Assembly: GCF_008065095.1 (NCBI RefSeq)
Contig: NZ_CP042911.1
Location: forward strand, 2,070,001-2,102,000
Length of the DNA stretch: 32,000 bases
Direction of reading: 5' to 3'
Source of the DNA: Gemmata obscuriglobus
GTDB taxonomy: Bacteria > Planctomycetota > Planctomycetia > Gemmatales > Gemmataceae
Position numbers and translations under genes: made by a program. A model generated the notes under the pieces. The model did no database searches. It saw only the letters and a list, made by a program, of their open reading frames with translations, and was not told the origin of the DNA. Positions 9,866 to 30,640 of the stretch are shown here, piece after piece. Position 1 is the first letter of the stretch. Each line of letters starts with the position of its first letter.

Positions 9866-9904
9866 GCGTTCCCCCTGCTTGATGTCGCTCGTGGCCGTAC
9901 ACGC

Positions 9905-14352: not shown

Positions 14353-14421
14353 CAAGCGAAACCCGCCTTCAGCGGTTGCCACCCAGTGAATACCGCCCCC
14401 GCCTCGCCACGGCGCTCCTAC

Positions 14422-15225
14422 TCATACTCTCGTTAGTGTGCCGTCGGCCAGAAGTCGGTCGAAATGTCGCTCCACTTGTCCCGGTAGCCCTCCTCCCGTC
14501 ACGAGCAGGCCCAACTCCATGTTGATGGTGAAGGCGTACTCGGTGAAGTTGGCACTCGACAGGAACATTCGGTGTCCGTCGGCGACTGCACATTTGACGT
14601 GCAGGATGCCGATCTTGCCGTTGTCGTCCCGGCCCCGCTTTTCCTGGGGCCAGTAGTATACCGAGCAGGACGATGCAACGCTCCCGCCCAGCGCTCGCAC
14701 GCAGTCGTACTCCCCCTGGCCCTCGACCCGGTTCGGCGTCTCCACGATCAAGCAGATGGCAACGCCACGGCGGGCCGCAGCGACGAGCGCCTCACGGATG
14801 CGTGGAATCCGGTAGACAGCATAGCTCACGATAGTCAGGCGGCTCGTCGCCGAGTTCACCACTTCCAGGATGGCCTGCTCCGTCTGGCGGAACCGGGCCT
14901 CGGCGGGTTCCGGGCCGGTCCAAACGACCTCGACCGTCTCCTCATGCCGGTGGTTGTGTTCGCACTTCGCTGCCGTGACTATGGCCACGGCGACCGCCTC
15001 GCCTCCGACGCAACCCGCCGTCGAATGCCAAACGTCGATGAATTCGGCGGTCGCCTCCCTGAAGTCGGGCGTCGGCACGGACTGAAGAATCGCTTGCCGG
15101 GCCACCGCTCGGTCGAGGCTGCTGTACCGGGTCACGGCGTCGGCCACGCCCACCATCAGTGCGTGAGGCAAACGACCCGCCAGCCGTGCCGCCGCCGCCC
15201 CGATCTGCTGGTGTTCGTGGCTCAT
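14422..15225 (-). CDS. drmC: phospholipase-D-family (HKD) nuclease, DISARM DrmC-like (267 aa)
   Basis: Single HKD motif 'ILHVKCAVADGHRMFLSSANFT'. ATG at 15225 lies 5 nt after the drmB stop. The 553-aa track ORF is an artefactual N-terminal extension that overlaps drmB. Confidence 0.85.
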   Translation of the reverse strand: MSHEHQQIGAAAARLAGRLPHALMVGVADAVTRYSSLDRAVARQAILQSVPTPDFREATAEFIDVWHSTAGCVGGEAVAVAIVTAAKCEHNHRHEETVEVVWTGPEPAEARFRQTEQAILEVVNSATSRLTIVSYAVYRIPRIREALVAAARRGVAICLIVETPNRVEGQGEYDCVRALGGSVASSCSVYYWPQEKRGRDDNGKIGILHVKCAVADGHRMFLSSANFTEYAFTINMELGLLVTGGGLPGQVERHFDRLLADGTLTRV

Positions 15226-15230
15226 AGCTT

Positions 15231-17138
15231 TCACCGGAAGAATGCCAACTCGCTCGACTCGCCCGTCTCCACCGTGGGGGCCAGGACCGCCCGGTCGAGG
15301 TACTTGTTGCCCCGCTCGCATGATGTCTCCGGGGCAAACAGGCAGGCGTGGCACGAGGCGGCGTGCAGGGTGATCCCGTCCCGGTACGGGTGGTGTTCGG
15401 CGCACAGCGGGTCGCTGGCGCACAGCCGCACGTTGTCGAGCGCCTGGTCCAGGTGCCGCTCCAGGGCCTCCGGTCTGCCCAGCGATACCAACCCGCCGAG
15501 CGTGCCTTCGCTGTCCGGCGCTGCGGTGTAGATCAGCACGCCCGCCATCTCCGGCTGTTCCTCGCCGGGGTTGCGGGAGTAAATCCGCTCCCGCAGTGAG
15601 GCCGTGGTGTACCCGCATTCGACGGACAGTTGGCGGATCAGGGCGTGGGCAAACGAGTGCAGCAGGACGTACCGCAGGCCCGGATAAAAGTCCTGGGGCG
15701 GGTCGAGCTTCCGGGCCGTCCGCCACCGCTGATGGGCTTCGAAGAACCGCCCGTCGAGCGTCTCGTTCTTCTTCACCCACGTCTGGATCAGGCTCTCCTT
15801 GAAGTGGAAGAACAGCCCCTCGCCCCGAATCTCCGACGCCGGAACCCAGGCCGGGTCTTTGCGGGAGAGTCTGGCCCGCTGATTCGGTGGGAACGCTGCC
15901 GGGTTGTCGTAGTCGCTCGGCGACTCGATGCGGGAGAAGCCGACCAGCGCCCGCACCTCTCGCAGCCGCTCGGCCAGGACCACCTTCTCGAAATACTTGG
16001 CGTACCGTTTCGGCGGCGGGACGGCCCGCAACTGGAAGTCCCGCCCCGTTTCCGCCGAGCCGGGGTCGGTGAAGACCTCCCATTCCGGCGTCTTGAGGTC
16101 GGACGGGTCGCCGCCTTGGTCCGGCACGGCGGTCTTCTTGGTCTGAACCGCCTGCCAGATGTCGGCGGGCGTGTACTCGGCCAGGTCACGCAACTGCGGC
16201 GTCACCGCCTGGAGGAGTTCGATGTTCTGCTCGCTTTGGACCTTCTCCAGAATGGTCCAGTGGTCATCGACAAGCTGTTTTAGCTTCCCAGACGCCTGCG
16301 GGATCGCCAGCGCTGTGAGCGTCAGACCGAACCACGAGTTCGATGCCCCCTGGAGCATTGGCTCCGCCCGCACTTCCACGCCAATGGGCGTCTTGCAGCC
16401 GCACTCGTCGTGGTCCCGCAAGTGGGGGCGGCGGGCCTTGCAGACCGGCAGCGCCTGGAGGTCCATCTTGAAGGCATCCGACATTGGCCGAGAGAGTAGA
16501 ACGGGCTTCCCATCTCGATAACCTAATCCGTGATCCGCCTCGCACTGCACATAGATGCTCGAAGCTTCGCCAGTGGCCGAGGGTTCGAGCAGCTTCAACC
16601 CGCCTTGGCATTTAGTCGGCCCGCCGTGGACGAAATTCCGCCACGGGAAGTCGTCCAGGTGGCCGTTCTTGCACGCCACGATGAAGCGGGCGGGAACCAC
16701 GGTCGGTGGCTTCCCCGGCTTGGTACAGTTGGCGTGGACGTACCGAATCTGGTCGGTACGGTACGGCGTCTCCAGCTTGAACAGCCCACCGCCGAGAGGT
16801 GCCAGCCGACGACAATAGGGGCAGACCATCCACCGGGGGAACGGGGCGACCGGGATGCCGACCAGGGCCGACGAGTCGAACTGGTTGACCTGATGCGTGT
16901 CCGGCACGACCGGGGCCGACCGCAATGCGGCTACCTGCGCCCCCAGCACTTCCTTGACCGACGCCAAGAGCCGCTGCTCCCCGATCTCCACCGTATCCTT
17001 GAGCGGCCAGTCCTCTAGCCCCATCACCATGACCGACAGGTTCGGCAGGTCGATGATCGCCCCGACGCCGAACGTGGTGAGCGCCTGGCTGGGGCGCAGT
17101 TCACCCACCTTGAAGCGTTTCTGGTCCTTCGGGGTCAT
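15231..17138 (-). CDS. drmB: DUF1998-domain protein, DISARM DrmB-like (635 aa)
   Basis: C-terminal 'CHACLFAPETSCERGNKYLDRAVL' is the DUF1998/MrfA-type Zn motif. N-terminal 'LRPSQALTTFGVGAIIDLP' and the Cys cluster 'CPYCRR...ANC' are also present. The ATG at 17138 overlaps the drmA stop (ATGA). Confidence 0.85.
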   Translation of the reverse strand: MTPKDQKRFKVGELRPSQALTTFGVGAIIDLPNLSVMVMGLEDWPLKDTVEIGEQRLLASVKEVLGAQVAALRSAPVVPDTHQVNQFDSSALVGIPVAPFPRWMVCPYCRRLAPLGGGLFKLETPYRTDQIRYVHANCTKPGKPPTVVPARFIVACKNGHLDDFPWRNFVHGGPTKCQGGLKLLEPSATGEASSIYVQCEADHGLGYRDGKPVLLSRPMSDAFKMDLQALPVCKARRPHLRDHDECGCKTPIGVEVRAEPMLQGASNSWFGLTLTALAIPQASGKLKQLVDDHWTILEKVQSEQNIELLQAVTPQLRDLAEYTPADIWQAVQTKKTAVPDQGGDPSDLKTPEWEVFTDPGSAETGRDFQLRAVPPPKRYAKYFEKVVLAERLREVRALVGFSRIESPSDYDNPAAFPPNQRARLSRKDPAWVPASEIRGEGLFFHFKESLIQTWVKKNETLDGRFFEAHQRWRTARKLDPPQDFYPGLRYVLLHSFAHALIRQLSVECGYTTASLRERIYSRNPGEEQPEMAGVLIYTAAPDSEGTLGGLVSLGRPEALERHLDQALDNVRLCASDPLCAEHHPYRDGITLHAASCHACLFAPETSCERGNKYLDRAVLAPTVETGESSELAFFR

Positions 17139-20100
17139 GGGGCGGCTCCCTCCTCGTCCTCGCCCTCGTCGTCCATGCCGAAGGTGTCGAGGATCAGGTT
17201 GGCGGTCGGCTCCACGTCCCGGAGCGAGTTGAGGCAGGTGAACTCGTCCCACGGCTCGATGCTCGGCTTGCGGAGCAGGCCGACCGTCACCCCGTCCTTC
17301 TTCGTCTCGTAGCCGAGTTGGTTCCCCTGGGCCGTCCGCTGTGCCCGCTTCTGCCACAGGTCCATCTTCCGCTTGAGTTGCTGGCGGACCTCCTCGGCGG
17401 TGTCCGGCCCGGCGACCAGTTCGGCCCGCCTCGTGATGACCTCAATGGCGTCGGCGACGTACTGGTGGCCCCGCTGGGTCGCCATCAGCATCGCCTTGTC
17501 GTTCGAGTTAAACTCGAACCCCCGCTGCCGGACCAAGGCCACCAAGAGCGCCGCCAGCCCACGGGCTGTCGCCCCCGCTGAGAACGGCGTGACCGACAGG
17601 GCCTCGACGTGCTTGTAGAAGGTCGAGTGGTAATGCTCGAACGTTTCGTAGTGGGACAAGTCCCGTGGCCTCGCCCAGTTGAACACCGTGCAAACGAGGC
17701 CGGGGAACTTCCGCCCGACCCGGCTCGACGCCTGAATGTACTCCGCAGTCGTCTTCGGCTGCCCGCCGACCACCATCAGGCCGAGGCGTGGTACGTCCAC
17801 GCCGACCGAGATCATGTTGGTGGCCAGCAGCACGTCGATGGGGCGGCGGATGAACTCCGCACTCCCCTTCCGCTTCTTGATCTCGTCCAGAATGTCTGGG
17901 TCGAACCGGCTCTCCAGCAGGTCGAGCGTTTCCGGGATCGCCGTCGATCCCAGCCGGGAGGTCAGTTCCTTCACCGTGTCAGGGGTGTACAGCGTACGGC
18001 TCGCCAGCCCCCGGTCATGCATTCTGCGGAGCCGGGTACGCACGTCGTCGTCCACCAGCCGCTTCATGCCGCCGAGTTCCCGCAGACTGTTGAAGTACCC
18101 CACGAGCGTCATCCACGGGTCGGCGTCCAGACCGTATTTGTCGAACAACACCTGCCCGGCAGACAGGAAGGCGACGTACACCCGGATGAGCGCCGCCTTG
18201 AGCCGCCGACCGGGGGCGCAGATGCCGATGTACTTCCGCCCCGGAGTCTTCTCCCCCGATTGCCGCTGGAGGGAGAAGAAGTTGTCGGCGATCTCCAGGC
18301 CGCTCGGCGGGAACACGTTCAGGCTGCGGAGGAACAGTCCGTACACCTGATCGCTCGCCCGGCGAATGGTCGCCGTGGACGCCACCACCTTGGGCCGCAC
18401 CTTCTTGCCGTTCACTTCCCAGGTGCAGAGCCGGTCGATGGCCGTCTCGTACAGGCCGACCAGCGTACCGAGCGGCCCACTGATGAGGTGCAACTCGTCC
18501 TGGATGATGAGGTCGGGCGGGCGCAGCGGGTTTTGCGCTACCACCCTCGCTTGGGGGATACTTCCCTTAGCCCGGTGGACGCCGCCGACCTCCAGTTCCT
18601 CGGACGCCTCGGCCAGACCGGGGGACCGAAATCCGTGCCGCTCGCAGTACCCGTCCACCTGTCCGAACAACATCTGTACCGACCCGTTCCACGGCATCTG
18701 AGCGAACTTGTCCACGGTGGTAATCAGGAGCGACGGCAAGCGGCGGTAAATCTCCTCGTCCACCACCATCACCGGCAGCCCCTCGCCCGGCGCTTCCTTC
18801 ATCGAGAACTTGCACTGGCCGAACTTGGCCCCACAGTAGATCAACGTGCGGCACGCTCCCTCGGCGTACTTCTCGACCTTAATGTGCTTGCCGGGGTCGA
18901 TCTTCGTCCCGCACCACGGGCAATTGGTGAGTTGGTGTGGGGACGCCGTCCCCGACTTGGGCTTGCCGCCGTGGGCCGACTTCACCGCCTCGTCCGCATC
19001 GCTGGTCCAGTTCGGCGTTGTGCTGCCGCCGACCCACAGGCCGATGCGGAACGGCGTTCTCCCCCATCGGGTTTCGCCGTGACTCAGGGCCGTGCGGCGG
19101 ATGTCTTCACAGGCGCAAATGAGCGCCGCCGCCCGCTGGAACTGCTGGAGTGTCAGGAGCCGGAGCGTGTATCGCATCAAGACGGTAACGCCATTCTCGC
19201 CGGAACGCCCCTCGATCACGCCCTGGAGCCGCCGCAGGCCGAGCGTGTAGGCAGTCAGGCCGAGGTACGCTTCTGTCTTCCCGCCGCCCGTGGGGAACCA
19301 GAGCAGGTCGGCGACGGCGTCCGGCGACTCGCCCCGTTCGGGGTGGTCGAGCTTCGTGATACCGGGCAGGTTCAGCAGGACGAAGGCAAGTTGGAACGGA
19401 TACCACGAGCGGTTTACCGGGATGTCGATGGCCCCCATGTCGGGCTTCTCGTCGCCCCGCCGCACCCGCTCTGCGAACTGCGAGTGGGTCCGCTGGAGCC
19501 ACATCGCCCGGTTCATGAACTGGAACGCCTGCGCCGCCTTATCGTCCTTATCGAGCAGGTCCAGTCCGGCCTCGATCCGCTGGAGGGTGGTGCGGCAGCG
19601 GGTGAGCGCTTGGCGGGTGGCGTGCTGGAAGTGCGTCAGCCCCTCGGCGGGGTCGGCGATTCGCTGATCTTCCCGCTCGATCCAGTCCCGGTACGCCTCG
19701 ACCAGTGGCTTGAGCATCGGGCGGTACTGCTTCGGGCTGGCCTCGGCCAACAGTTTCATGTCGAGGACCAGCCCCTCCAGCTTAGCAAAGGCCGGATTGG
19801 TCCCGGCGTCGGCGGGCGTTGGCGGGGTAGTCTTAGGAACCTCGTAGGTCGGCACGACCCTGGTGCGGACCCGGACGGCGTGTGTCGGGTCGGGCGACAC
19901 GTCCACATGCACACCGATCCCGTGGCCCACGGCGAACTCGACGTGCCGCCGATACAGCATCCCCAGCAGTTCGTTCTCGGCCTTCACAGCCGGGTCCGTG
20001 CCGGTGAGTTCGAGGATGGTGTGCCGCTTGTGCAGGACCGCCGCCCCACCGACCCCTTCCGCCATCAACTCCGGCTGGAACACCCAGGCGGCGTCCTTCC

Positions 20101-20752
20101 GCTTCTCCGGCTCCTGCTGCTCGTTGACCAGGAACAGGGTGACGCACCAGTGGTCGGTCCGCTTGCGGACGAGGCCCTGGACGACGACTTCGGGGCAGTT
20201 GTGATCGACCACGACCGGCTGGAGCGGGCCGTCCTTCAACGGCAGCCGGTGCTTGCCGCCACGGGGATACCGCTTCCACACCAAGCGGGGGTTGCCAGTC
20301 TTCTCGCTGACGAGGTACTCGCTCTTCTCCCGGAGGTACTGCCCCCAGGCGGCGGACAGATCGATCTCGCTGGCCTCAGGGTTAACCGAGAAGGTCATGC
20401 CGAACGACGACGGGATCAGGGCCTTGGCCTGCTCCTGGGCGGCTTCCCGGTCGGTCGGCCCGTCCTGCGACGTGTCTTTGCCGCCTAGCGCCAGGTCGTC
20501 GCCGTCGAGGATTTCCCCGTCCGTATCACCGTCGTCGTCCTCGTTGGTCTGGGGCGGGGCGGGTCGAGCGGGTGCGACCTCGGCGGTTCGCTTCCGGGGG
20601 GCCAGCACGCCGACGAAGTACCGAGTTCCGGGCGACTCGGTGATCTCCTCCTCGGCGCTGCCGGGGCCGAGGAGTTCCTTCAGAACCATCGTTTCCAGTT
20701 CGTCCCGCAACTGGAGGGGCGAGGGCGGCTTCGGCAACGCTGGCAAACTCAT
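17135..20752 (-). CDS. drmA: superfamily-2 DExH helicase, DISARM DrmA-like (1205 aa)
   Basis: Motif I 'LWFPTGGGKTEAYLG', motif II 'LIIQDELHLISG', motif III 'ASTATI', motif V 'LLATNMISVGVDVPRL' and motif VI 'YIQASSRVGR'. ATG at 20752. Confidence 0.88.
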   Translation of the reverse strand: MSLPALPKPPSPLQLRDELETMVLKELLGPGSAEEEITESPGTRYFVGVLAPRKRTAEVAPARPAPPQTNEDDDGDTDGEILDGDDLALGGKDTSQDGPTDREAAQEQAKALIPSSFGMTFSVNPEASEIDLSAAWGQYLREKSEYLVSEKTGNPRLVWKRYPRGGKHRLPLKDGPLQPVVVDHNCPEVVVQGLVRKRTDHWCVTLFLVNEQQEPEKRKDAAWVFQPELMAEGVGGAAVLHKRHTILELTGTDPAVKAENELLGMLYRRHVEFAVGHGIGVHVDVSPDPTHAVRVRTRVVPTYEVPKTTPPTPADAGTNPAFAKLEGLVLDMKLLAEASPKQYRPMLKPLVEAYRDWIEREDQRIADPAEGLTHFQHATRQALTRCRTTLQRIEAGLDLLDKDDKAAQAFQFMNRAMWLQRTHSQFAERVRRGDEKPDMGAIDIPVNRSWYPFQLAFVLLNLPGITKLDHPERGESPDAVADLLWFPTGGGKTEAYLGLTAYTLGLRRLQGVIEGRSGENGVTVLMRYTLRLLTLQQFQRAAALICACEDIRRTALSHGETRWGRTPFRIGLWVGGSTTPNWTSDADEAVKSAHGGKPKSGTASPHQLTNCPWCGTKIDPGKHIKVEKYAEGACRTLIYCGAKFGQCKFSMKEAPGEGLPVMVVDEEIYRRLPSLLITTVDKFAQMPWNGSVQMLFGQVDGYCERHGFRSPGLAEASEELEVGGVHRAKGSIPQARVVAQNPLRPPDLIIQDELHLISGPLGTLVGLYETAIDRLCTWEVNGKKVRPKVVASTATIRRASDQVYGLFLRSLNVFPPSGLEIADNFFSLQRQSGEKTPGRKYIGICAPGRRLKAALIRVYVAFLSAGQVLFDKYGLDADPWMTLVGYFNSLRELGGMKRLVDDDVRTRLRRMHDRGLASRTLYTPDTVKELTSRLGSTAIPETLDLLESRFDPDILDEIKKRKGSAEFIRRPIDVLLATNMISVGVDVPRLGLMVVGGQPKTTAEYIQASSRVGRKFPGLVCTVFNWARPRDLSHYETFEHYHSTFYKHVEALSVTPFSAGATARGLAALLVALVRQRGFEFNSNDKAMLMATQRGHQYVADAIEVITRRAELVAGPDTAEEVRQQLKRKMDLWQKRAQRTAQGNQLGYETKKDGVTVGLLRKPSIEPWDEFTCLNSLRDVEPTANLILDTFGMDDEGEDEEGAAP

Positions 20753-20829
20753 CTCAAAACCTCGAACGCTTGTAGTCGTCGCACGGCGAACAACACCCGT
20801 CGTTCACCGTCGTGAGAGGTTGCAGAGCT

Positions 20830-22845
20830 TCATGCGCCCTCTTCATCGTTGAAGAGGGACTGTTGTTCCGAGTCGGACTGAGCGATTTCCAGTTGCCTCC
20901 GAAAGAGCGAACCCGCTCCGCCGCTGAGAACTTCCTTCGTCACGTCGGCAGACCGAAGCGCCTCGGACGGTTGAGTCGTTGTGGTCACGATGTACTGGTA
21001 GGGCGTGGTGCCCGCATCCGACATCAGCGAAAACGCCGTGTCCAGCATCCGCTCGTACAGCCGCACGTTGAGGTCGGCTTCTCGTGGGCTGTCGTGGATG
21101 AGCAGTCCGGGGTGGCAGACCGACCCCGACGAACTCTCCACGAGAATGGCGAGGTCGGCCAGGAGCACGGCAAGCGTTTCGTACGCCTCGCCAGCCAGCG
21201 AGCGCTCCCGGCTGATCCGAAAGGCGATCTCTTCCTTGTCGACGGCGACCGTGCCTTTGAAAGTGCCGGTGATCGCCTGCTGGACGATGCTGTGGAACCG
21301 CTGTCGAAACTGCTCCATTCGTTCGTTTTGCTTGACCAGCAACTCTGACAACTCCTGCTTCAGTCGCTCGACCTCCGCCTGTTTGTTTTGCTCGTCCGAA
21401 CTGAGGGCGGCGAGTTCGTGGTTCGGTTCTTCGCCGCTCTCGACCCGGTGCCACTTCAACAGATCGTTCGTGACGAGGGGAACGACCTTCAGCAAGTTGT
21501 TGATGTCACGGCGACGATCCGACAGGTCGTTTTTCGCCTCATTGAGTTGCTTCAACTTCGTTCGAATCCGCTCCAGTGAGTCCTCCTGGCGTTTCGCCTC
21601 GGTGCCCAACGCCGTTTCGACTTGGTCCCGGTTCTGAACCACCCTGAGCACCCGCCGCTGACCTTCCGGCGGCTTCTTTGCGATCTCGCCCTCCAGATCG
21701 GCCAACTTCTTCTTGACCATCTCGCACTCACTGACCAGTTCACCAGTCGGGCACGATTTGAAGCCCTTCTCCAAGATCGTCTGGCGCTGGCTTTCGGGGC
21801 TGACCGACTCTTCGAGGACGGCGGTGCCCGTAGCGGTGACGACTTTTGCGCTATCGCTCTGTTCCTGCAACTCGTGAATCTCGTTGAGCCTCGCCGTCGC
21901 CCCGTTGATCTGTGTGTCGAGGTCTTCGATCCTCTTCTCGACAGCGGCACGCTCCTGCTCCAGATCGCTGATGCGCCCCTCTGTCATCTGGCGAATGTTG
22001 CCGAGTACCCGGTTGTCCAGCGGCGCAGCGTCCGCTCCGGGCACCTCGCACTCGTCCCGCAGGCGCTTGCGAGTCTGCTCGATGTGGAACGCTGGCTCGG
22101 CGGCTTTCAACTTGATCTTGTCCCGCAGTTCACCCAGTTCGGCGTCTAACTCGGCCTGACGCTTCAGAATTTGGGGTTCTCGTATGTCGAGCAGTCCCAA
22201 CATCGCACGCACGCACAGGGACACATCGACTTTGGTGAACTTCGTGACGCCGGAATCGCTGCGGGCGGGGCGCACGTTCCAGAAGCGGTCGTAGCGGCTC
22301 TCCTGATCTCGGCTACACAGGGCCAGCAGATGCGACCACTGGACCGCCTGTCCGCCGGACAGCACCTCCCGGTGCTTCAACCCCGACAGAACGAGTTCCT
22401 GCACGTGCTTCAGGAACTCGGTGTACGGTTGGTCTGCTGCTGCTGCTGCCAGTTTCGCCAGCGTAACCCCACGCTTGACCCGATCTCGTCCGCCGGTGCC
22501 GAGCTTTCTCAGGACCGCCCATTCGTCGCCGTCCACGACGACCACAGCGCCGACGTACCCTTTGGGAAAGCAGTGCCGGACTTCTTCGACCACGTGCTGC
22601 TGACCGAAGGTCTTCTCCCCCAGGCAGTACCGGATCAACCGGCAAAGCGTCGTTTTCCCGTTGCCGTGCCCCGATTCAAAGTCTTGGGCCGAGTCGTCGG
22701 ACTTGCCCTGGATGATGTTCAAGCCGGGCGCAAACGGGATCGTGCGAATCTCATCAACCGGCGAAAGCGACCGATACAGCGTCACCTGCTTCACCCAAAT
22801 CAGGGGCGAAGTGCGCTTGCCGGGTTTCGCCGATTTCCGGGTCAT
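20830..22845 (-). CDS. coiled-coil ABC/SMC-type P-loop ATPase (671 aa) embedded in the DISARM operon
   Basis: N-terminal 'APGLNIIQG...ESGHGNGKTTLCRLIRYCLGE' (P-loop). About 350 aa rich in heptad-like E/K/L/Q/R (coiled coil). C-terminal 'HPGLLIHDSPREADLN' (Walker-B/D-loop-like, reminiscent of the IHDS motif of DUF2326 / ABC-3C ATPases). The ATG at 22845 overlaps the drmMI stop (ATGA). Confidence 0.8.
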   Translation of the reverse strand: MTRKSAKPGKRTSPLIWVKQVTLYRSLSPVDEIRTIPFAPGLNIIQGKSDDSAQDFESGHGNGKTTLCRLIRYCLGEKTFGQQHVVEEVRHCFPKGYVGAVVVVDGDEWAVLRKLGTGGRDRVKRGVTLAKLAAAAADQPYTEFLKHVQELVLSGLKHREVLSGGQAVQWSHLLALCSRDQESRYDRFWNVRPARSDSGVTKFTKVDVSLCVRAMLGLLDIREPQILKRQAELDAELGELRDKIKLKAAEPAFHIEQTRKRLRDECEVPGADAAPLDNRVLGNIRQMTEGRISDLEQERAAVEKRIEDLDTQINGATARLNEIHELQEQSDSAKVVTATGTAVLEESVSPESQRQTILEKGFKSCPTGELVSECEMVKKKLADLEGEIAKKPPEGQRRVLRVVQNRDQVETALGTEAKRQEDSLERIRTKLKQLNEAKNDLSDRRRDINNLLKVVPLVTNDLLKWHRVESGEEPNHELAALSSDEQNKQAEVERLKQELSELLVKQNERMEQFRQRFHSIVQQAITGTFKGTVAVDKEEIAFRISRERSLAGEAYETLAVLLADLAILVESSSGSVCHPGLLIHDSPREADLNVRLYERMLDTAFSLMSDAGTTPYQYIVTTTTQPSEALRSADVTKEVLSGGAGSLFRRQLEIAQSDSEQQSLFNDEEGA

Positions 22846-25800
22846 GCCGCCACCACATACCACTGATATCTGTCATTCACAATCGCCTTGAGAATCTCGG
22901 CCTTCTCTGGCGGAATCTCATTGGGCGTTCCTGTGTTCTCAGGGCCGAACCGTGTCTGAAGATCACGCAATTCCGCAGCAGCTTTGCGAAGCAGGGAGAC
23001 AAGTTCCGGTGCGGCAGCGAGGTACGACTTCCGAGCCTCGGACACGGCTGTTCCCACCTGAATGGTCTGGCCTCCTTGTTCGATGGCTTTCCGCCGGACA
23101 AGCTGGTTCTTCAACTCACCCCACGGGATTTTGTCTGCGGTGCTCCACGAGGCTAATGGCGTGGCCTGACACAACTTCTCAAACTCGGTGCGGTCCTTTC
23201 CGGTGAGAAGCTGTTTGTGTCGCTTATAGCCCAGCGCAATCACGAGGGCATCGACGTATTCCAACTCGCTTAGACCGGAGTCTGCTTTGACCAGATCGCA
23301 GACGAGTCCACAGAGATAACTGTCCCGTTCGGTGCTGGGGAATGTGCCATCGTCAGGGTCGAACAGCGTGGCCCCGGTGGTGGCTTTCTGCTCGGTAGCC
23401 TTCGCCTTCGGCTTGCTGGCCGCTTTCGGCTTCTTTTTCGTGTCGTGCAGCCCTTTCTTCACTTCATCGGCGTATCGCTCGTGGTTCAATCTCAGTAGCC
23501 GAGCGAGGATTTCCCGCCGGGCCGGTTCGCTGATCGTGTACCGGATACCTTGCTTCGTTTCGTGGAAGCCGTGGTCGAGGGCGAGATCGGACCAGCCGTA
23601 GGCGGCGACGACAGCGCAGTCCATCTCGACGTGGAGTTGTCGGAGTTTCTGGATGCCGTCGTTGGTTTCCTCGGAGTCGTGGAATCGATTGTAGGTCTTG
23701 GTCAGCCCTTCTCGCCTAGTGGACATCACATCTTTTCGATGCAACTCGTAGCTCTCGCCTACCTGAAGCGCAGGGATTTGTGGGGGGAAAGGGAAACTCT
23801 CGAAACTGTCGGAGATCGAGAACCGGAGCCGTGTTTCGAGCGTCGAAGACGTCTCCCTGGACCACAGATCAAAAATGCTCGACGACAAAACAGAATACGC
23901 TGCTGTCGCTACGCCACAGTGTACTGCTAGATCGACCGAGAAGACGCAGTTGGTCGGGAGTGTTGAGACGCATAGGTATTTCGTTACACGTGTGGACGCC
24001 ATCACTCGATCTAGACCAGACATTACTTCGATAATTTCCCGCTGCACTCGGCCATACTGCCACCAAAACTGCTTTCGGCGACGGCCATCCGTGTTGTCTT
24101 TCAACCGATCACGTTCCGGTTTAACTTTTTCTTTCACAATTCTGAAGCAGTCGGGGTAATCCATCGCCTTCTCGATGGGCCAGTCGAAGAAGTTGATGAC
24201 CCAGCGACTCGGTGACTGGTCAGGACGGGAATTGAGGTCTTCGCCATTCAAGTACGGGAACAGCACGTTCCGGTTTCGGGAGTCTTTGGCAATCAGCGCC
24301 TGAGCTTCTTCAGGCGTCATCACGAAGCCCATGCCGAGAACGATAGAACCCTGGAACGACTTGCCCTCGTTCGCCTTGAGACTGTAGGGGTTACCTGTCA
24401 CAGTTTTTGGGGGTGTCAGGTAAGCAGTAATCCCCTCGGCAGGCTTCTCATCGAGGACGTATAAGCCGTTCCACCCACCCCTGCGAACCCACACGATTGA
24501 AATTTCCAGACTGGCGAATCCCGGCCACGGGCGGCTCGAATGCGCCCGGTTGACGATGAAGTTCGCCGCCAGCAGCAGATCGAAGGCGACCTCTCTGGTA
24601 TCCCCTTGAGCAATGGTGTTGCTGGCGATCAGGCCGAACCCTGCGCCCGGTCGCACCAACTGCGCCGCACGCAAGAAGAAGTAGGCGCACAGGTCGGCGC
24701 TACCCCGCTTTCCTTTGGCGAGATGGTGAACCAGATACTCTCGGTAGAGAGTTCCGAGGAAGCCGGTGATCTTCTGCCCGCCCATGAACGGTGGGTTTCC
24801 GATGCAGGCATCGAAGCCCCCTTTGGTAATGAAAACTTCGGGGAACTCCAGCGGCCAGTGAAACGGCGTGCGTCCCTTGTTCGCCGCACATGCGGTGACG
24901 GCGAGATCGTGGTCTTTTCCCTGCTGGAAGCTAATCGCCGCCGAAATTAACTCGCCGTCCCCAACATCGAATGCCTTCCCAATCAACACGTCAGCAACCA
25001 GCTTCAGCCGCTTCGTGAGCGCCACGGATTCGTTGAAGTACGCCTCCTGCTCGTTGATCGCTTCGATTGACGTGGCGTGGCGGTTTTCGAGCTTATTTCG
25101 CAGGGCAATCGCCTGCGTCGCTGCATCGTCCAGGCTGGAGAGGAAGAGGTTCCCTTCCTCCCGCTTGCCGGACAGAGTGAGGTTCCGCAGTTGGTCGAGG
25201 TCGTGGATGCCGACGAGCGAATCGCCGTGCCGGATCGCATGGTCGAGGAACTCGAACGGCTTGTCCTTCGCCAGCGTGAGCAACCACAGCGAGAGCTTGG
25301 CGATCTCGACGGCGAGCGGGTTCTTATCGACGCCATAGATGCACCGCTGGGCAACGAGCCGCCGGGCGTAGGCTTCCCGCTCGTCGGGATCGGCGGGGAT
25401 CAGTTCTTCGTTCACCGCCCCCTGTGACGGCAAGCCTTCCGGGGTCAACCGCACCTGGCTCGGCTGCTGGCGTTCGAGTTCTTGCCACGCCTCTTGGAGC
25501 CGAGCCGCCAAGTACCGACACGCTTCGACCAAGAACGCCCCGGACCCGCAGGCGATATCGCACACCTTCATGCCGAGGATGTCACGGGCTGATCTCAGCT
25601 TCCATTCTTCCTTCGGCTTGCCATCAGAAGGGCCGTCGTAAATGAGCGGTTCGAGGGTGTACTGAACGATGGGTTCGGTGAGGGTCTTCGGGGTGTAGTG
25701 AGTGCCGGTGCTGCGCCGGTCTGTGCCCGCCGTGACGAACACGCTGCCCGTGGTCACGACGACTGGGTAGCCGAGCGTGTCGAGGCGCACCAGCCCGGCG

Positions 25801-27353
25801 AGCGGCTTTACCCGCTTCCACAACTCCGAGTCCTGACAGGCGCTGCGGAAGCGACCGGCGAGTTGGTCGTCCAGTTCAACAGTGAGCGCCTTCTTCAGTG
25901 CCGATTCCGACCGCCCCGTTTCGTCCTTGAGGAACGTGAGCAGTTCCTTCTCCCCTTTGGCGGCGAGCTTCTCCAGTTCGGCCAGGGCGAGTTCCGGCTC
26001 CTGATCCCGTGTCCCCGCCAGCCCCAGCATCGGCTCGGCGGCACGCCGGGCGGTGTGGTCGAGCAGACCTTCGTAAACGTGGCCGATCTGCTCGATGTCG
26101 AGCGACCGGAAACTGAGCGACCGGGCTTCGGTCGTCTTGCCGACCTTTGTTTGGAGCACCTGCAGCGCTTCGAGCAGGTGCAGCACCGTGCGGTTGCTCA
26201 CTGGCAGCGGCGTGGCTTCAGCGGTCTTCCACGTCGTGCCCGACTTGCGGCCTTCGAGGAAGGGGAAGCGGTCGGGGTTGAACAGACTGCCGCCGTAGGC
26301 GGGGAGTTTCAGCCGGTCGTGCTTCACGCCAGCGTACACCGCCCGGAAGGTGGTGAGCAACCGAATCCAGGCGTCGAACCGCAGGCCGAGGATTTCTTCG
26401 CCGTGCTCGTCCGCCGTGAGCCGCAGTTGTTCCCGCAGCGTACTGACGGCGTAGTTCTTGTCGTACAGTTCGTCGCCGAGCAGCAGCAGTTCCCGCTCCT
26501 CGGCGCAGAACAGGAACACCAACCGCATCATCACCGTGAGGGCCGACTCGTAGAGAGCCTTTTCGTCAACGTCGGCGAGAAGCTTCCGCCCGTGGTCCTG
26601 GTCGGCCTTGTCGAGCGCCTGGATCAGCACCTCGACCGCCTTGCGAACCTGATAGCCGAGTTGGTCCGTGACTTCTTGCTGGTCCTTCTGGCTCTGGTCG
26701 AGCAGGCCGTCCTTGAGGTCGAGCGTGTCCTTGTCCGGCACGCTGAAGAAGCGATCCGCCGAAAGCAGGGTGCGGAAGGCCCGCAGCGTGATCGGCTCCT
26801 CTAGCCAGAGGTCGGCCCGCCAGGTGGCGTAACCGGTCGGCTCGTTCTTCGGGGCGTTCACCAGCATCCAGTCGAGGCCGTTGGTGACGAAGCCGAGCCG
26901 GATGCCGGTGTCGTTCAGCAGTTGCGTCATCCGGGTGTCGGGCGATGTCTTCCACCGGGACGCCACAACGGGCTTCGTGAGCGACTGCGACCGGGGGTAC
27001 ACCTGCACCAACAGTCGGACCTTCTGTGTGGCCGGGTCTGTCACAATCCAGTCGGGGCGCAACGTCTCTCCGTACTGCGCCTCCTCGCTCTTGAGCGACT
27101 GCGGGATCGCTTGCCCCTCGGCGAGCCGTTCCTCGAAGCCCAGAGTCTCGCCCAGCACGAACCGGACCCACTGGCGGTGGAGGGTGGCGTCGTGGTCCCA
27201 CTCATCGAACGCCTGCCGCAGCCGCCGGGCGTGTTCGGGGTCGTGAGCGTCAACGCCTTGCGGGAACGCCTGCGCCAGCACCGGCAAACTCAAGAACGGT
27301 CCCGAGTTCGGGACGAGGCGCAGCCAGTCATTGTGGTGACGGGTGATGGACAC
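22842..27353 (-). CDS. drmMI: large N6-adenine DNA methyltransferase, Eco57I/PglX type, DISARM DrmMI-like (1503 aa)
   Basis: 'GTHYTPKTLTEPIV', AdoMet motif 'VCDIACGSGAFLVEA', 'IYGVDKNPLAVEIAKLSLWL' and catalytic 'ACIGNPPFMGG'. GTG start at 27353, 3 nt after the drmD stop. Confidence 0.88.
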   Translation of the reverse strand: MSITRHHNDWLRLVPNSGPFLSLPVLAQAFPQGVDAHDPEHARRLRQAFDEWDHDATLHRQWVRFVLGETLGFEERLAEGQAIPQSLKSEEAQYGETLRPDWIVTDPATQKVRLLVQVYPRSQSLTKPVVASRWKTSPDTRMTQLLNDTGIRLGFVTNGLDWMLVNAPKNEPTGYATWRADLWLEEPITLRAFRTLLSADRFFSVPDKDTLDLKDGLLDQSQKDQQEVTDQLGYQVRKAVEVLIQALDKADQDHGRKLLADVDEKALYESALTVMMRLVFLFCAEERELLLLGDELYDKNYAVSTLREQLRLTADEHGEEILGLRFDAWIRLLTTFRAVYAGVKHDRLKLPAYGGSLFNPDRFPFLEGRKSGTTWKTAEATPLPVSNRTVLHLLEALQVLQTKVGKTTEARSLSFRSLDIEQIGHVYEGLLDHTARRAAEPMLGLAGTRDQEPELALAELEKLAAKGEKELLTFLKDETGRSESALKKALTVELDDQLAGRFRSACQDSELWKRVKPLAGLVRLDTLGYPVVVTTGSVFVTAGTDRRSTGTHYTPKTLTEPIVQYTLEPLIYDGPSDGKPKEEWKLRSARDILGMKVCDIACGSGAFLVEACRYLAARLQEAWQELERQQPSQVRLTPEGLPSQGAVNEELIPADPDEREAYARRLVAQRCIYGVDKNPLAVEIAKLSLWLLTLAKDKPFEFLDHAIRHGDSLVGIHDLDQLRNLTLSGKREEGNLFLSSLDDAATQAIALRNKLENRHATSIEAINEQEAYFNESVALTKRLKLVADVLIGKAFDVGDGELISAAISFQQGKDHDLAVTACAANKGRTPFHWPLEFPEVFITKGGFDACIGNPPFMGGQKITGFLGTLYREYLVHHLAKGKRGSADLCAYFFLRAAQLVRPGAGFGLIASNTIAQGDTREVAFDLLLAANFIVNRAHSSRPWPGFASLEISIVWVRRGGWNGLYVLDEKPAEGITAYLTPPKTVTGNPYSLKANEGKSFQGSIVLGMGFVMTPEEAQALIAKDSRNRNVLFPYLNGEDLNSRPDQSPSRWVINFFDWPIEKAMDYPDCFRIVKEKVKPERDRLKDNTDGRRRKQFWWQYGRVQREIIEVMSGLDRVMASTRVTKYLCVSTLPTNCVFSVDLAVHCGVATAAYSVLSSSIFDLWSRETSSTLETRLRFSISDSFESFPFPPQIPALQVGESYELHRKDVMSTRREGLTKTYNRFHDSEETNDGIQKLRQLHVEMDCAVVAAYGWSDLALDHGFHETKQGIRYTISEPARREILARLLRLNHERYADEVKKGLHDTKKKPKAASKPKAKATEQKATTGATLFDPDDGTFPSTERDSYLCGLVCDLVKADSGLSELEYVDALVIALGYKRHKQLLTGKDRTEFEKLCQATPLASWSTADKIPWGELKNQLVRRKAIEQGGQTIQVGTAVSEARKSYLAAAPELVSLLRKAAAELRDLQTRFGPENTGTPNEIPPEKAEILKAIVNDRYQWYVVAA

Positions 27354-27356
27354 GGC

Positions 27357-30300
27357 TTACCCCTTCCTCATCTTTTCCGGGACGAGGAACGTCACCGCCA
27401 CGGGGAACATGCGGGGTTGCGGGTCGGCGTAGCGGGCTTGGACCGCCGCCGCCTCCCGCTCGATCTCGGCGGGGATCGCCTTCGACCTCGCTCGCAGGAA
27501 GTCCTTGTTCCGGTCGAACTGGTCTTGTTCGAGGAGGTCATCGAACAGGCCGGGCTGGTGGTTCGCTTGCTCTGCGAGTTCGGTGTCGATGGCCTTCTTG
27601 AGTTCGAGCATGATCGCCCGGATGTCCTCGGCCTCTTTTTCTCCCCGCTCACCGAGTTTCTTCTGGAGACCGGCGGTGCGGTCCCGCATCCGAACTTCAA
27701 GCGACTGGGAGAGTCCGGGGGCGAGTTTGTCCCACAGTTCGAGCAGGTGCCTTTGCATCGGTTCGTAAGGCTCGTCGCCGGTGACGGCAGCGAGCAACTT
27801 TTCGATGTCGCCGACGTTCAACCGGGAGAATCGCCCTTCCTTGATCTGCCCTCCCGCCGTGATGATCTCCTCGTGCAAGCGGTGGCTGTCGCCGCCGATG
27901 ACGACCAGGCGGGCGTGGGCGACGACGGCGGGCGTGTTGAGGACGTGGTTCGGCACGAGCCGGGCGGTGATACGGTGGAGCCGCTTGCGCCCCTTCACGG
28001 ACCAGACCTCCGCCCGCAGCAGCCGCAAGCTCATCTGCACGAGTCGGTGGTTGAGGTGGGCCAGCACGATGTCGTCCCGTCCGTCAGCGGCGGAATGGTC
28101 GAACGTGATCGGGCGGATTTCCTTCGTGTGGGGGTGCTCCAACCCCTCGGCGCACGCCGCCCAACTGTGCTTGAGCGCCGGGAGCGTGAAGACCGGCTTG
28201 CCGGACGAATGCGGTACCGGAATCAGGGCCGGTTGCTCGGCAAGGGCCAGCCCGACCTCGACCACCTTGCGGATGTTCTCCGGCGACAGCCGCAGTTCTC
28301 GCTGTGTCTCCCGGTACTGTTCGAGCAGGTCGTTGATTTGCTTCGCCAAGTCCCTCTCGAACTTGAGCATCTTCCGCACGGGTTCGGATTTGGCGTCGGC
28401 CCGGACTACACCCGGCATCGAATACCCCCGACCGAGCATCGCCTGTTCAACGTCATCGGCCAGCACCGTCCCGTAACTGCCGAGGTCTTCCCTGATCGTC
28501 TCGACCTTCTGCGCCACCCGCATCAGGAATTCCAAGTCGGCGTCGAGGTCCGCCGCCTTCGCTGCGAACGCCGAGTGCTGGCGCTTCTTGTACCCCTGCC
28601 CGACGAAGTGGTACACGAACACCTGGCGCTCGCCGCTGTCGGCGAGAAAACCCTTTTGCCCGTGACGGTCGATCCGCCCGTTGCGCTGTTCCAGCCGGTT
28701 GGGGTTCCACGGGATTTCGTAGTGGATCAGTCGGTAGCAGTGGTTCTGAAGGTTCAGCCCTTCAGCCGCCGCATCCGTGGCGAGCAGGAGCCGCACCGGG
28801 CTGATGTCCGGGGCCGACTGGAAGGCGGCTTTGACCTCCTCCCGCTCCTCCGAGTCCATGCCGCCGTACATCGTCATCAGCCGCTCGCCGCCCGTGAACC
28901 CCCGCTGGGCGAGGATTTCCAAGAGCCAGTTCTGGGTGGCCCGGTACTCGGTGAAGATGATGACCCGTTCGGCGCTCCACTTCTTGTTGGGACGAAGGTG
29001 GGTATTCAACCACTCGATCAGCCGGTTTACCTTCGAGTCGAGTTGGGCCGTCGCCGTTTCCGCCCAGGTCCGCATCTGCCGGAGCAGGGCCAGTTCTTCC
29101 GTGGACGGCTCGGTGAACAGCAGTGAAGCGGCGTCCAGGGCGTCGGTCATCGCCTCGTCGTACTCGCCGTCGTCGGCGTAGTCCTCGTCCGCCCGGTCGA
29201 GTTCTTGCTTCAGGACGTTGACGGACGACTTGCGGACGGCCTTGCCCCGCCTGGCTTGCCGGAGCGATTGCTCGTGCTGCTCAAGGGTCTTCAGAAACGC
29301 CGCCGGACTGGAGAAGAGGCGCTTCTTCAACGTCTTGAGAACGAACTCCGTCGCCAGCTTTTCGGTGCTGTCCTGGGCACGCTCGACCCGGAGATCGGCG
29401 TACCGCCGGAGGGCCGTGTGAACGGCTCGCTCGTCGTCGGTGTATGGCACTTCGATGGGGTCCAGCACCCGCTTCGGGAACCGGGGCGAGCCGTCCCACT
29501 TCGGCGGCAGTTCCGACTTCATGCGCCGGACCATGACGGCGTTGAGTTGCTTGCGGTCGGGCGGCGTGCTGCGGGCGAACCGCTGGTTGTCGAGCAGTTC
29601 GAGCAGCGCCGAAAAGCTCTCCGGGTAGCCGTTGTGCGGCGTGGCGGTGAGGAACAGCTTGTGTTCAAAGTGCGGCACGAGTTGCCGGAGCGCTTGCGTC
29701 CGCTGCGAGTCCGTGGCGTACCGCCCCACGCCGGACGGGGCGCAGTTGTGGGCCTCGTCCACGATGAGCAGGTCGAACCGGCGGGGGTAGATTGGATCGT
29801 CCGGCCCCGGCAGCAGTTCCCGGAACCGCCGCAGCGGGCGCTCCCGCTTGAGGAAGTCGATGCTGGTGATGAGTCGGGGGAAGTGGTTCCACGGGTTGAC
29901 GTGGATGCCCCGGCTGCGGCGCAGTTGCCCCACGAGCGCCGAGTTGACGATGCGGAAGTCGAGACCGAACTTGTCCCGCATCTGCTCTTGCCACTGCACC
30001 TGAAGCGGGGCCGGGCAGACGATCAGGATTTTCCGAGTCCGGTGGCGGATAATGAGTTCGAGCGCCACCATGCCCGCCTCAATGGTCTTGCCGAGGCCCA
30101 CGTCGTCGGCCACCAGCAGGTTAACCCGTGGCATCTGGATGGCCCGCACCACCGGGTCGAGTTGGTAGTCCTCGATGTCGATGCCACTACGGAACGGGGC
30201 CTGAATCGTGCGCACGTCCGCCGACGAGGAAGCGCCCCAACGGACGGCATCAAGGAAGGCGTCGAGTTGTTCGGGCGGATCGAACCCAGTGGGATCGGGC

Positions 30301-30539
30301 AGGGCGACCTTCTCGACCACCCTGGCCCCCGGCTCAAGTTCCCAAACGACGTTCAGTTCTTCGCCCAGGCCGTCGTCCTCGACCGACGACAGGGTAACGA
30401 GGTGCTGCGGCGAGTCCAACCCGGCGTGCAGTCGTTCGGACGGCAGGGTGCTGGCGGATACGTCCGTGACCATCCAGTTGCGGGACCGGACGCTGACCAT
30501 CTGGCCCTGTTCGGGGTGTCGAGAGGTTATGGGCGTCAT
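27357..30539 (-). CDS. drmD: SNF2-family helicase, DISARM DrmD-like (~1060 aa)
   Basis: 'DYQLDPV', motif I 'LLVADDVGLGKTIEAG', motif II 'LLIVDEAHNC', motif III 'LTATPHNG', motif V 'LLATDAAAEGLNLQ' and motif VI 'WNPNRLEQRNGRIDRHGQ'. I chose the ATG at 30539 (MTPITSRHPEQGQMVSVRSRNW...). The frame stays open to a TTG at 30635, so the 5' end is uncertain. Confidence 0.85.
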   Translation of the reverse strand: MTPITSRHPEQGQMVSVRSRNWMVTDVSASTLPSERLHAGLDSPQHLVTLSSVEDDGLGEELNVVWELEPGARVVEKVALPDPTGFDPPEQLDAFLDAVRWGASSSADVRTIQAPFRSGIDIEDYQLDPVVRAIQMPRVNLLVADDVGLGKTIEAGMVALELIIRHRTRKILIVCPAPLQVQWQEQMRDKFGLDFRIVNSALVGQLRRSRGIHVNPWNHFPRLITSIDFLKRERPLRRFRELLPGPDDPIYPRRFDLLIVDEAHNCAPSGVGRYATDSQRTQALRQLVPHFEHKLFLTATPHNGYPESFSALLELLDNQRFARSTPPDRKQLNAVMVRRMKSELPPKWDGSPRFPKRVLDPIEVPYTDDERAVHTALRRYADLRVERAQDSTEKLATEFVLKTLKKRLFSSPAAFLKTLEQHEQSLRQARRGKAVRKSSVNVLKQELDRADEDYADDGEYDEAMTDALDAASLLFTEPSTEELALLRQMRTWAETATAQLDSKVNRLIEWLNTHLRPNKKWSAERVIIFTEYRATQNWLLEILAQRGFTGGERLMTMYGGMDSEEREEVKAAFQSAPDISPVRLLLATDAAAEGLNLQNHCYRLIHYEIPWNPNRLEQRNGRIDRHGQKGFLADSGERQVFVYHFVGQGYKKRQHSAFAAKAADLDADLEFLMRVAQKVETIREDLGSYGTVLADDVEQAMLGRGYSMPGVVRADAKSEPVRKMLKFERDLAKQINDLLEQYRETQRELRLSPENIRKVVEVGLALAEQPALIPVPHSSGKPVFTLPALKHSWAACAEGLEHPHTKEIRPITFDHSAADGRDDIVLAHLNHRLVQMSLRLLRAEVWSVKGRKRLHRITARLVPNHVLNTPAVVAHARLVVIGGDSHRLHEEIITAGGQIKEGRFSRLNVGDIEKLLAAVTGDEPYEPMQRHLLELWDKLAPGLSQSLEVRMRDRTAGLQKKLGERGEKEAEDIRAIMLELKKAIDTELAEQANHQPGLFDDLLEQDQFDRNKDFLRARSKAIPAEIEREAAAVQARYADPQPRMFPVAVTFLVPEKMRKG

Positions 30540-30640
30540 CTCGGTCGTGCCTTCCGGTTCGGCGAAAGCGCCGGACTCCGCCGTGATCGGGCCGTTCCCC
30601 GCAGCAATCTTTAAAGTGCTGTTCGTGAAGCCCAAGTATC

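Follow-up and report, generated by a model that had tools for sequence, protein, structure and literature searches.

An LmuB/YydD-like SMC-type ATPase encoded in a class 1 DISARM operon of Gemmata obscuriglobus and a proposed docking domain on its upstream methyltransferase

A 32,000-nucleotide stretch of the Gemmata obscuriglobus genome (NCBI RefSeq assembly GCF_008065095.1, contig NZ_CP042911.1, positions 2,070,001 to 2,102,000 of the forward strand), referred to here as the window and numbered from its first nucleotide (nt), contains a class 1 DISARM defence operon with an additional gene, here designated X, between drmMI and drmA. An original prediction made from the sequence alone had singled out this gene as an extra coiled-coil ATPase of the ABC/SMC type. 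The present analysis concerns X, its relatives in other genomes, and a C-terminal domain (CTD) of the protein encoded directly upstream, DrmMI in the window, which is proposed to act as a docking domain for X.

The operon and its sixth gene

The genes form one tightly packed operon on the minus strand, in the order drmD, drmMI, X, drmA, drmB and drmC.

27357..30635, minus strand: drmD, SNF2-like helicase (longest open reading frame, ORF; the real start is possibly slightly downstream)
22842..27353, minus strand: drmMI, large N6-adenine (type IIG/PglX-like) methyltransferase of 1503 amino acids (aa)
22845..23342, minus strand: CTD of DrmMI, residues ~1338-1503 (~170 aa), all-helical, following a K/A/P-rich linker
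20830..22845, minus strand: X, LmuB/YydD-like SMC-type ABC ATPase, 671 aa
20753..20829, minus strand: X–drmA spacer of 77 nt, the sole sizeable gap in the operon
17135..20752, minus strand: drmA, YprA-family helicase (PADLOC DrmA, E = 0)
15231..17138, minus strand: drmB (DUF1998/MZB; PADLOC DrmB, 2e-69; Pfam MZB)
14422..15225, minus strand: drmC, PLD-family nuclease (PADLOC DrmC, 7e-71; Pfam PLDc_2)

Class 1 DISARM is said to comprise drmD, drmMI, drmA, drmB and drmC, a set attributed to Ofir et al. 2018. As predicted, the genes flanking X make up this set in full: all five are recognized by PADLOC, and drmD and drmA also exceed curated NCBIfam cut-offs (DISARM_DrmD, 1337 bits against a cut-off of 610; DISARM_DrmAS, 1408 bits against 950). 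The drmD product matches PADLOC DrmD (PDLC02621, E = 0) and carries the Pfam domains SNF2-rel_dom and Helicase_C, and DrmMI carries Eco57I, MmeI_Mtase and MmeI_TRD. Gene order is canonical for class 1 DISARM, and the junctions overlap or nearly abut: drmMI starts with a GTG 3 nt past the drmD TAA, the drmA stop and the drmB ATG (17138) share an ATGA, and the drmC ATG lies 5 nt past the drmB stop. The locus thus resembles class 1 systems such as that of Serratia sp. SCBI in having all five genes in canonical order on one strand; it differs in the sixth gene between drmMI and drmA, and in the ~170-aa CTD of DrmMI, which neither the PADLOC DrmMI model nor DISARM loci lacking X possess. The DISARM literature consulted describes five genes, sometimes plus drmMII (10.1101/2021.12.28.474362), and none of the DISARM models in PADLOC or NCBIfam matches X.

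The sequence confirms X as a minus-strand ORF of 671 aa at 20830-22845. Its start codon (ATG, 22845-22843) overlaps the drmMI stop codon (TGA, 22844-22842) by 4 nt as ATGA, which places X on the drmMI side and, as had been anticipated, speaks against a free-standing cassette. On its other side, the X–drmA spacer is the boundary between a drmD–drmMI–X module and a drmABC module. The original prediction had also remarked on this 77-nt spacer and on an imperfect hairpin in it (12 bp, 20783-20810). Both exist, but the hairpin is unremarkable: its stability does not exceed that of shuffled sequence (z = -0.96), and a consensus scan found no U-tract or terminator-like site after it on the minus strand. 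A role as a regulatory element or terminator was dropped on these two grounds.

The X protein is 100% identical to G. obscuriglobus GobsT_18050, and its reading frame is kept over the whole length in over 100 protein clusters, with identities as low as 28%; it is not a chance ORF. X is almost certainly an SMC/Rad50-type ABC ATPase of the LmuB/YydD (ABC-3C/DUF2326) kind, in agreement with the original prediction. The PADLOC LmuB model PDLC03859 matches it with E = 1.3e-23, aligning residues 19-624 of X to positions 6-585 of 611. An AlphaFold2 (AF2) model built from an alignment of 19 family sequences (mean pLDDT confidence score, 82.7) shows an N-terminal half-head, an antiparallel coiled coil, an apex hairpin and a C-terminal half-head. 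When this model was compared with the PDB by Foldseek, YydD ranked first (9a6c, 5e-16), followed by four independent LmuB structures (1.5e-14 to 9e-12) and, behind these, Rad50, Smc, MukB, JetC and Smc5/6. Sequence searches with X gave no significant match in Pfam or NCBIfam (AAA_23 at E = 0.027), no match to Pfam DUF2326 (PF10088) even at E <= 10, and coiled-coil noise only in the PDB; one homologue (P0062) has a precomputed PF10088 match, and one is named DUF2326 by the PGAP annotation pipeline.

X has the Walker A, Q-loop, signature and Walker B motifs of an SMC/Rad50 head, with the head split by a coiled coil.

22648..22671, minus strand: Walker A motif GHGNGKTT, X residues 59-66
21274..22182, minus strand: antiparallel coiled-coil arm, X residues ~222-524 (~300 aa), from the AF2 model
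21724..21753, minus strand: coiled-coil apex hairpin, C365 to C374 (Cx8C), from the AF2 model and alignment
21172..21198, minus strand: ABC signature-like motif LAGEAYETL, X residues 550-558
21070..21108, minus strand: Walker B and D-loop region, GLLIHDSPREADL, X residues 580-592

The P-loop and the LLIHDSP motif (residues 581-587) named in the original prediction are therefore in place, as is the coiled-coil insert, although the latter spans ~300 aa (222-524) instead of ~350. Motif conservation was counted over 79 full-length family members. In Walker A, G59, H60, G63, K64 and T65 are invariant in all 78-79 members with a residue there, and the Q of an RDQ motif is kept in at least 77 of the 79. 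The signature-like motif is nearly as constant (G552, 77/79; E553, 74/79; A554, 77/79; L558, 79/79). H584, D585, P587, R588, A590 and D591 occur in every sequence, giving a family string hhhHD[S/C]PREAD with S (69 sequences), C (9) or G (one) at position 586. A catalytic Glu after the Walker B Asp is found in none of the 79. A further string, QY..TTT, is near-invariant across the same set. The H-loop of SMC proteins reads QFIVITH; we take QYIVTTT of X to be its equivalent, with the expected His apparently replaced by Thr. The consensus of the Walker B motif in short LmuB proteins is itself deviant, hhhhD[Q/S/T/E] (PMC12663957), and X (LLIHDS) fits it, ending in the same D[S]. LmuB proteins with such a motif still hydrolyse ATP at a moderate rate (PMC12663957; 10.1101/2025.06.23.660979).

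In the AF2 model, the arm consists of helices at 222-264, 284-362, 375-469 and 476-524, and its apex is a short beta-hairpin joining two arm helices. Both apex Cys residues are present in 79 of 79 family members, spaced as Cx8-11C (x9 in 70/79), and constitute a candidate zinc-hook-like dimerization site. This spacing differs from the CxxC of Rad50 and LmuB zinc hooks (PMC12663957), and X has no hinge domain.

The product names that PGAP gives to homologues, 'chromosome segregation protein SMC' and 'DUF2326 domain-containing protein', could be taken to mean that X is a housekeeping SMC protein that entered the operon by accident. This is hardly credible: at 671 aa, and with an arm of 300 aa that lacks a hinge domain, X falls far short of the length of a true SMC; LmuB and YydD are the structures nearest to it; it is patchily distributed, also on plasmids; and its genomic context is invariably a defence operon.

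Relatives of X and the domain on the upstream protein

Run over one genome for each GTDB species, a pattern scan recovered 517 loci with a relative of X, of which the best 80 were examined. In 77 of these an ORF ends at the start of X, the remaining three having too little upstream DNA. Where identifiable, the upstream ORF encodes a large methyltransferase, the Type I specificity subunit HsdS or an AbiLi-like ATPase. The order YprA-like helicase, SNF2 helicase, large N6-adenine methyltransferase, X occurs in about 50 of the 80 loci, distributed over many phyla, with X most often as the last gene of the operon. The YprA-like helicase is DruE-like, with MZB/DUF1998, and the SNF2 helicase is DrmD/BrxHII-like. 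This order was checked directly in five loci (L078, L054, L012, L024 and L081), which qualify as ARMADA Type I. Class 1 DISARM with X between drmMI and drmA accounts for six of the 80 loci, five from planctomycetes and one from Opitutaceae (Verrucomicrobia), the X of the last being only 26% identical to that of the window. The arrangement in G. obscuriglobus is thus no one-off insertion, nor is X a peculiarity of DISARM, given that the family mostly ends ARMADA Type I-like operons and also follows HsdS or AbiLi-like ATPases.

The family is sizeable: a HMMER search over 1.84 billion representative proteins returned 974, 710 and 382 clusters at E <= 1e-3, 1e-10 and 1e-30, respectively. On plasmids, all eight matches to X lie in helicase–methyltransferase–X loci (four checked directly) and none in a classical Lamassu. 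X accompanies about 8 of 83 plasmid methyltransferase records, most methyltransferases of the ARMADA or DISARM type being without it, and it was absent from 86 plasmid records with a DrmA homologue. Genes 3' of X are variable, with no conserved partner in 74 loci; no conserved downstream effector gene was found either, neighbours such as HNH, GmrSD-like and Hachiman genes being sporadic.

What recurs is a domain on the upstream protein. The canonical PADLOC DrmMI model (PDLC02643, E = 0) covers only residues 2-1324 of the 1503 in the window protein, leaving the CTD outside. A hidden Markov model (HMM) of the CTD, built solely from the C-termini of long methyltransferases linked to X, matches the window DrmMI at 2.7e-47 and, among the 77 proteins whose genes precede X, finds the domain at the C-terminus of 73. 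Its matches extend beyond methyltransferases, to the HsdS of Kolteria (1.5e-22) and to AbiLi-like ATPases (1e-19 to 1e-38), such that every kind of partner bears the CTD. The DISARM methyltransferases of two loci without X, from Oscillatoria (1400 aa) and Microvirga (1378 aa), gave no CTD match even at E = 10. The same pattern emerged when an ARMADA-type methyltransferase was searched against the plasmid collection and the 30 homologues listed were compared: the alignments of the four that have X reach query residues 1385-1403, and those of the other 26 end at 1310-1325, save one match cut at residue 1022. The methyltransferase of an ARMADA Type I locus without X, in Acidithiobacillus caldus, has 1317 aa. 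The CTD itself has no match in Pfam, PADLOC (E <= 1) or a PDB profile search. The original prediction had coupled X to the helicase–nuclease core of DISARM; the conserved link is instead to the CTD of the upstream protein, not to DrmABC.

The CTD and X also share their history. The nearest neighbours of a given CTD are those of its X, even across host-protein families, with a Spearman correlation of 0.68 over 2850 pairs. The HsdS-linked CTD groups with the CTDs of planctomycete methyltransferases, and the AbiLi-linked CTDs, together with the verrucomicrobial DISARM CTD, group with those of verrucomicrobial ARMADA methyltransferases. Because this shared phylogeny persists while the host protein changes, the CTD and X are, on sequence comparison, a two-part portable module that has repeatedly been attached to different host proteins. 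The tree of X follows host phylum and shows the DISARM-linked sequences to be polyphyletic; a single origin of DISARM-linked X was rejected by the neighbour-joining tree.

These observations bear on an alternative in which X would be an independent defence gene embedded in DISARM, that is, a stripped-down or orphan Lamassu/ABC-3C sensor sharing only transcription with its neighbours. Such a gene might serve as a backup or guard that responds, for example, to an attack on DrmMI by phage anti-restriction proteins. Embedded genes are common in DISARM, BREX, Hma and Type I restriction-modification (RM) loci, usually on the same strand (10.1101/2024.01.29.577857), unrelated cargo does occupy the drmMI–drmA junction in Microvirga and Oscillatoria, X matches the PADLOC embedded-candidate model PDC-M68B at 1e-18, and the plasmids with a DrmA homologue lack it. 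However, X has no effector domain, and no LmuA-like, LmuC-like or other conserved partner gene accompanies it; the ATGA overlap ties its start to drmMI; and a CTD-bearing protein precedes it at 73 of the 77 loci with upstream DNA available, and no CTD is present on the methyltransferases examined from loci that lack X. An autonomous cassette would need no matched domain fused to a neighbour, and for this reason we regard the embedded-gene explanation as unlikely.

Several of the loci deserve separate description. On the Kolteria novifilia chromosome (L008, 3099-11998), the Type I RM genes hsdR and hsdM are followed by an unusually long hsdS (653 aa) and then directly by X; the CTD corresponds to the extra C-terminal ~140 aa of this HsdS. 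In L047 (8060-12034), as in L065 and L074, X comes after an AbiLi-like/AAA_21 (OLD-family) ABC ATPase with a CTD; the vicinity contains neither an SNF2 helicase nor a methyltransferase, and the downstream ORFs are devoid of Pfam matches. The CTD-bearing AbiLi-like ATPase and X may constitute a minimal two-gene system. In L064 (9986-12035), X is divided between two overlapping ORFs, which suggests a frameshift, a pseudogene or an error of assembly. A gap of about 1 kb lies between the methyltransferase and X in L021 and L022 (~8960-9960), where the upstream ORF chosen is missed by the CTD HMM; a separate small CTD-bearing ORF may lie in this gap.

In class 1 DISARM, the junction between drmMI and drmA receives insertions recurrently. 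It holds an 'ATP-binding protein' and an O-methyltransferase on a Microvirga terrae plasmid (L085, 9186-11600) and XisH/XisI on an Oscillatoria plasmid (L084, 10746-11497), and four DISARM loci with X (L005, L007, L062 and L064) have an extra 0.6-2.7 kb after it. ARMADA Type I operons likewise show additions. An HNH endonuclease gene lies after X on the Mesorhizobium AR02 plasmid (L081, 13955-14725) and directly after the methyltransferase in the operon without X on the Acidithiobacillus caldus plasmid (L086, 13091-13873); HNH may thus be another optional ARMADA accessory, with X inserted between it and the methyltransferase gene. The latter operon also contains a Phd/YefM–VapC toxin–antitoxin pair between the SNF2 helicase and the methyltransferase (L086, 8355-8989). 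Finally, the PADLOC 'DpdE' model PDLC02853 matches the ARMADA-type SNF2 helicase of L078 (2725-5571) over its full length at 6e-213, far above any DrmD model, and may therefore capture ARMADA helicases, not Dpd proteins.

Known systems and wider surroundings

Lamassu type I is reportedly lmuA–lmuB and type II lmuA–lmuC–lmuB, in an ABC-3C classification attributed to Krishnan et al. 2020. X resembles Lamassu LmuB and Bacillus subtilis YydD (DUF2326) in its split ABC head, ~300-aa coiled coil, Cys-bearing apex and similar size, and these proteins supply both its best sequence-profile match and its best structural matches, although X is only ~14% identical to the solved structures. The organization of the loci is also reminiscent of Lamassu, in that the gene before X encodes, like lmuA, a variable N-terminal part and a conserved C-terminal domain. 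The differences are nevertheless considerable. Neither the window nor the related loci contain a gene for an LmuA effector (Cap4, Mrr, nuclease, lipase, SIR2 or protease), and no PADLOC LmuA model matches the upstream DrmMI. LmuC, expected for type II, is lacking, and the 4-nt overlap and 77-nt gap around X leave no room for its ORF. The cargo beside X is instead a 1300-aa DNA methyltransferase, a Type I HsdS or an ABC ATPase, within a larger restriction-like operon. The locus fails the definition of Lamassu because it has neither an LmuA effector nor LmuC, and the three-gene ABC-3C setting with both of these partners, which the original prediction had raised as an alternative context for homologues, was absent.

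Among SMC-like proteins, Rad50/SbcC shares with X the ABC head, the antiparallel coiled coil and an apex Cys pair, and gives structural matches of 1e-9 to 1e-5; Lamassu has itself been proposed to derive from SbcCD (PMC12663957). X differs from Rad50/SbcC in its much shorter arm, in having Cx8-11C in place of CxxC, in the missing catalytic Glu and in the lack of an Mre11/SbcD nuclease partner.

ARMADA Type I comprises a YprA-like helicase, a BrxHII/RapA-like SNF2 helicase and a PglX-like methyltransferase (Bell et al. 2025, PMC12458937), and most X homologues end operons of identical content and order. Two plasmids that bear X, those of Mesorhizobium AR02 (CP080530) and Caballeronia SBC1 (CP049160), appear in the ARMADA Type I helicase table, and an SMC/ABC-type fourth gene goes unmentioned in the text of that paper and in part of its supplements (PMC12458937). 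The window locus differs from ARMADA Type I in being a DISARM system, with DrmA and DrmB split and DrmC present; ARMADA Type I loci without X also exist, with a shorter methyltransferase.

A combination of SNF2-type helicase, DNA methyltransferase and large ATPase is likewise found in Hma and in the BrxC/PglX/BrxHII group of BREX, and DrmD matches the HmaA and BrxHII models. Hma was rejected as the identity of the window trio: HmaB is an m5C (5-methylcytosine) methyltransferase (PMC8565338), whereas DrmMI is an N6-adenine (Eco57I/MmeI-type) enzyme, and no PADLOC model of HmaC or BrxC matches X. A looser version of this comparison holds that X is a functional analogue of the ATPases of BREX-like triads (BrxC, DUF499 ATPases, HmaC), acting as a core DNA-loading or scaffold ATPase of DrmD–DrmMI. 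Type 3 BREX and DUF499 systems (PMC12839542) and Hma (PMC8565338) also combine a helicase, a methyltransferase and an ATPase, BrxC has a long coiled coil whose apex subdomain has been likened to zinc hooks (PMC12839542), and X usually closes the YprA–SNF2–methyltransferase operon. However, BrxC is an AAA+ ATPase, not an ABC ATPase (PMC12839542), with no relation to X in sequence or fold. A core function also sits poorly with the optional nature of X (about 8 of 83 plasmid methyltransferase records) and with its association with HsdS and AbiLi-like ATPases, where SNF2 and PglX are absent. We consider this analogy improbable.

The remaining features of the window are peripheral to X. Two sites from the consensus scan might mark the limits of the operon, both of them weak.

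30898..30927, minus strand: sigma-70-like promoter match upstream of drmD, 9 of 12 positions
14363..14375, minus strand: terminator-like hairpin just past drmC, candidate operon end

Across the region, terminator-like sites were no more numerous than expected from shuffling. The alignment of DrmA to PADLOC PDLC02567 (1750 positions) covers only 556-1724; some DrmA proteins thus have an N-terminal extension of ~555 aa that is absent from the window protein. A D12-class N6-adenine DNA methyltransferase ORF lies at 1074-1868 on the minus strand (Pfam, 9.8e-22), close to an ORF with a weak match to the serine-recombinase 'Recombinase' domain (2569-3240, plus strand), which hints at a mobile or defence island that contains or adjoins the DISARM operon; the window has no tRNA gene. 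A leucine-rich-repeat protein of 362 aa is encoded at 12700-13788 on the plus strand (LRR_6, 2.7e-30), opposite to drmC and ~630 nt from its end. A 400-aa ORF overlaps this gene on the other strand and is probably spurious given the high-GC DNA.

Proposed role and meaning

We propose, with a probability of roughly 0.6, that X is an accessory subunit of the modification and specificity arm of the system (DrmD–DrmMI), and neither part of the DrmABC core nor an independent cassette. In the class 1 DISARM of Serratia, the DrmD–DrmMI pair contributes to defence (10.1101/2021.12.28.474362). A physical partnership between X and the CTD, argued from adjacency and co-phylogeny, is quite probable. The precedent is Lamassu, in which LmuA consists of an effector and a CTD that anchors it to the coiled coil of the LmuB dimer; the dimer holds one LmuA in this way, on the distal coiled coil, and switches state upon encountering double-stranded DNA ends, which together with ATP control the release of LmuA (PMC12663957; 10.1101/2025.06.23.660979).

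By analogy, X would form a homodimer joined along the coiled coils and at a Cys4, zinc-hook-like apex, and this dimer would bind the CTD and so tether DrmMI. The heads would bind ATP as well as DNA, the latter probably in the form of free ends or of other intermediates of replication or injection. Because the catalytic Glu is replaced and the expected H-loop His is apparently Thr, X would probably behave as a slow switch, not a motor. Sensing of DNA would then alter how the tethered methyltransferase or specificity subunit, with its SNF2 partner, acts on that DNA. In one version, X would recruit or license the restriction-like complex on invading DNA; in another, it would withhold methylation from invading DNA, such that fewer phages escape by accidental modification. 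This model of sensing and regulation is put forward tentatively, at somewhat less than even odds.

Several points weigh against the proposal. Adjacency and co-phylogeny would follow equally from simple co-inheritance, and the drmMI–drmA junction is known to receive unrelated embedded genes, which fits the embedded-cassette alternative. Four of the 77 upstream ORFs give no CTD match: those of L021 and L022, with their long gap between methyltransferase and X, one beside a partial X and one that is apparently frameshifted. The CTD HMM also misses the Mesorhizobium methyltransferase, though tblastn reaches into the CTD region. No sequence similarity of the CTD to LmuA, LmuC or anything else was detected, and its AF2 model, from four close homologues, has a pLDDT of 49, too poor for a fold search; homology of the CTD to Lamassu CTDs is therefore conjectural. 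Without the catalytic Glu, ATP hydrolysis by X appears uncertain, and the direction in which X might regulate its partner is a guess.

The literature consulted contains no description of the X family, its CTD or the link between them, nor of the six-gene arrangement, in keeping with the original prediction; Ofir et al. 2018 and Krishnan et al. 2020 lie outside that scope, and either may hold an earlier mention of the arrangement. For annotation, X is now a recognizable family of a few hundred clusters at 50% identity, with a matching, proposed docking domain that could be used by pipelines currently labelling X 'chromosome segregation protein SMC' or 'hypothetical'. For the PADLOC and DefenseFinder catalogues, it is a candidate sixth gene of DISARM and a candidate fourth gene of ARMADA Type I.

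The CTD together with X is a portable add-on to several restriction-like defence systems, a Lamassu arrangement with a methyltransferase as cargo. It would extend the Lamassu principle of a CTD-tethered cargo on an SMC-like dimer from abortive-infection toxins to DNA-modification enzymes. X touches the question of how DISARM and ARMADA discriminate foreign from self DNA. Methylation status is not by itself sufficient to account for targeting in class 1 DISARM (10.1101/2021.12.28.474362), and an optional SMC/Rad50-like subunit on the methyltransferase suggests a second input, such as DNA ends or replication intermediates. A more far-reaching version, which is doubtful but worth stating, is that the CTD and X form a portable, Lamassu-derived 'SMC tether' by which the methyltransferase or specificity subunit of DISARM, ARMADA and Type I RM systems is gated by a sensor of DNA ends or structure. 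If this were true, X would be the first SMC-family protein known to regulate a system of the restriction-modification kind, the cargo slot of Lamassu would be able to hold a non-toxic enzyme, and the decision to methylate or restrict would be gated by the physical state of the DNA, beyond its sequence and modification.

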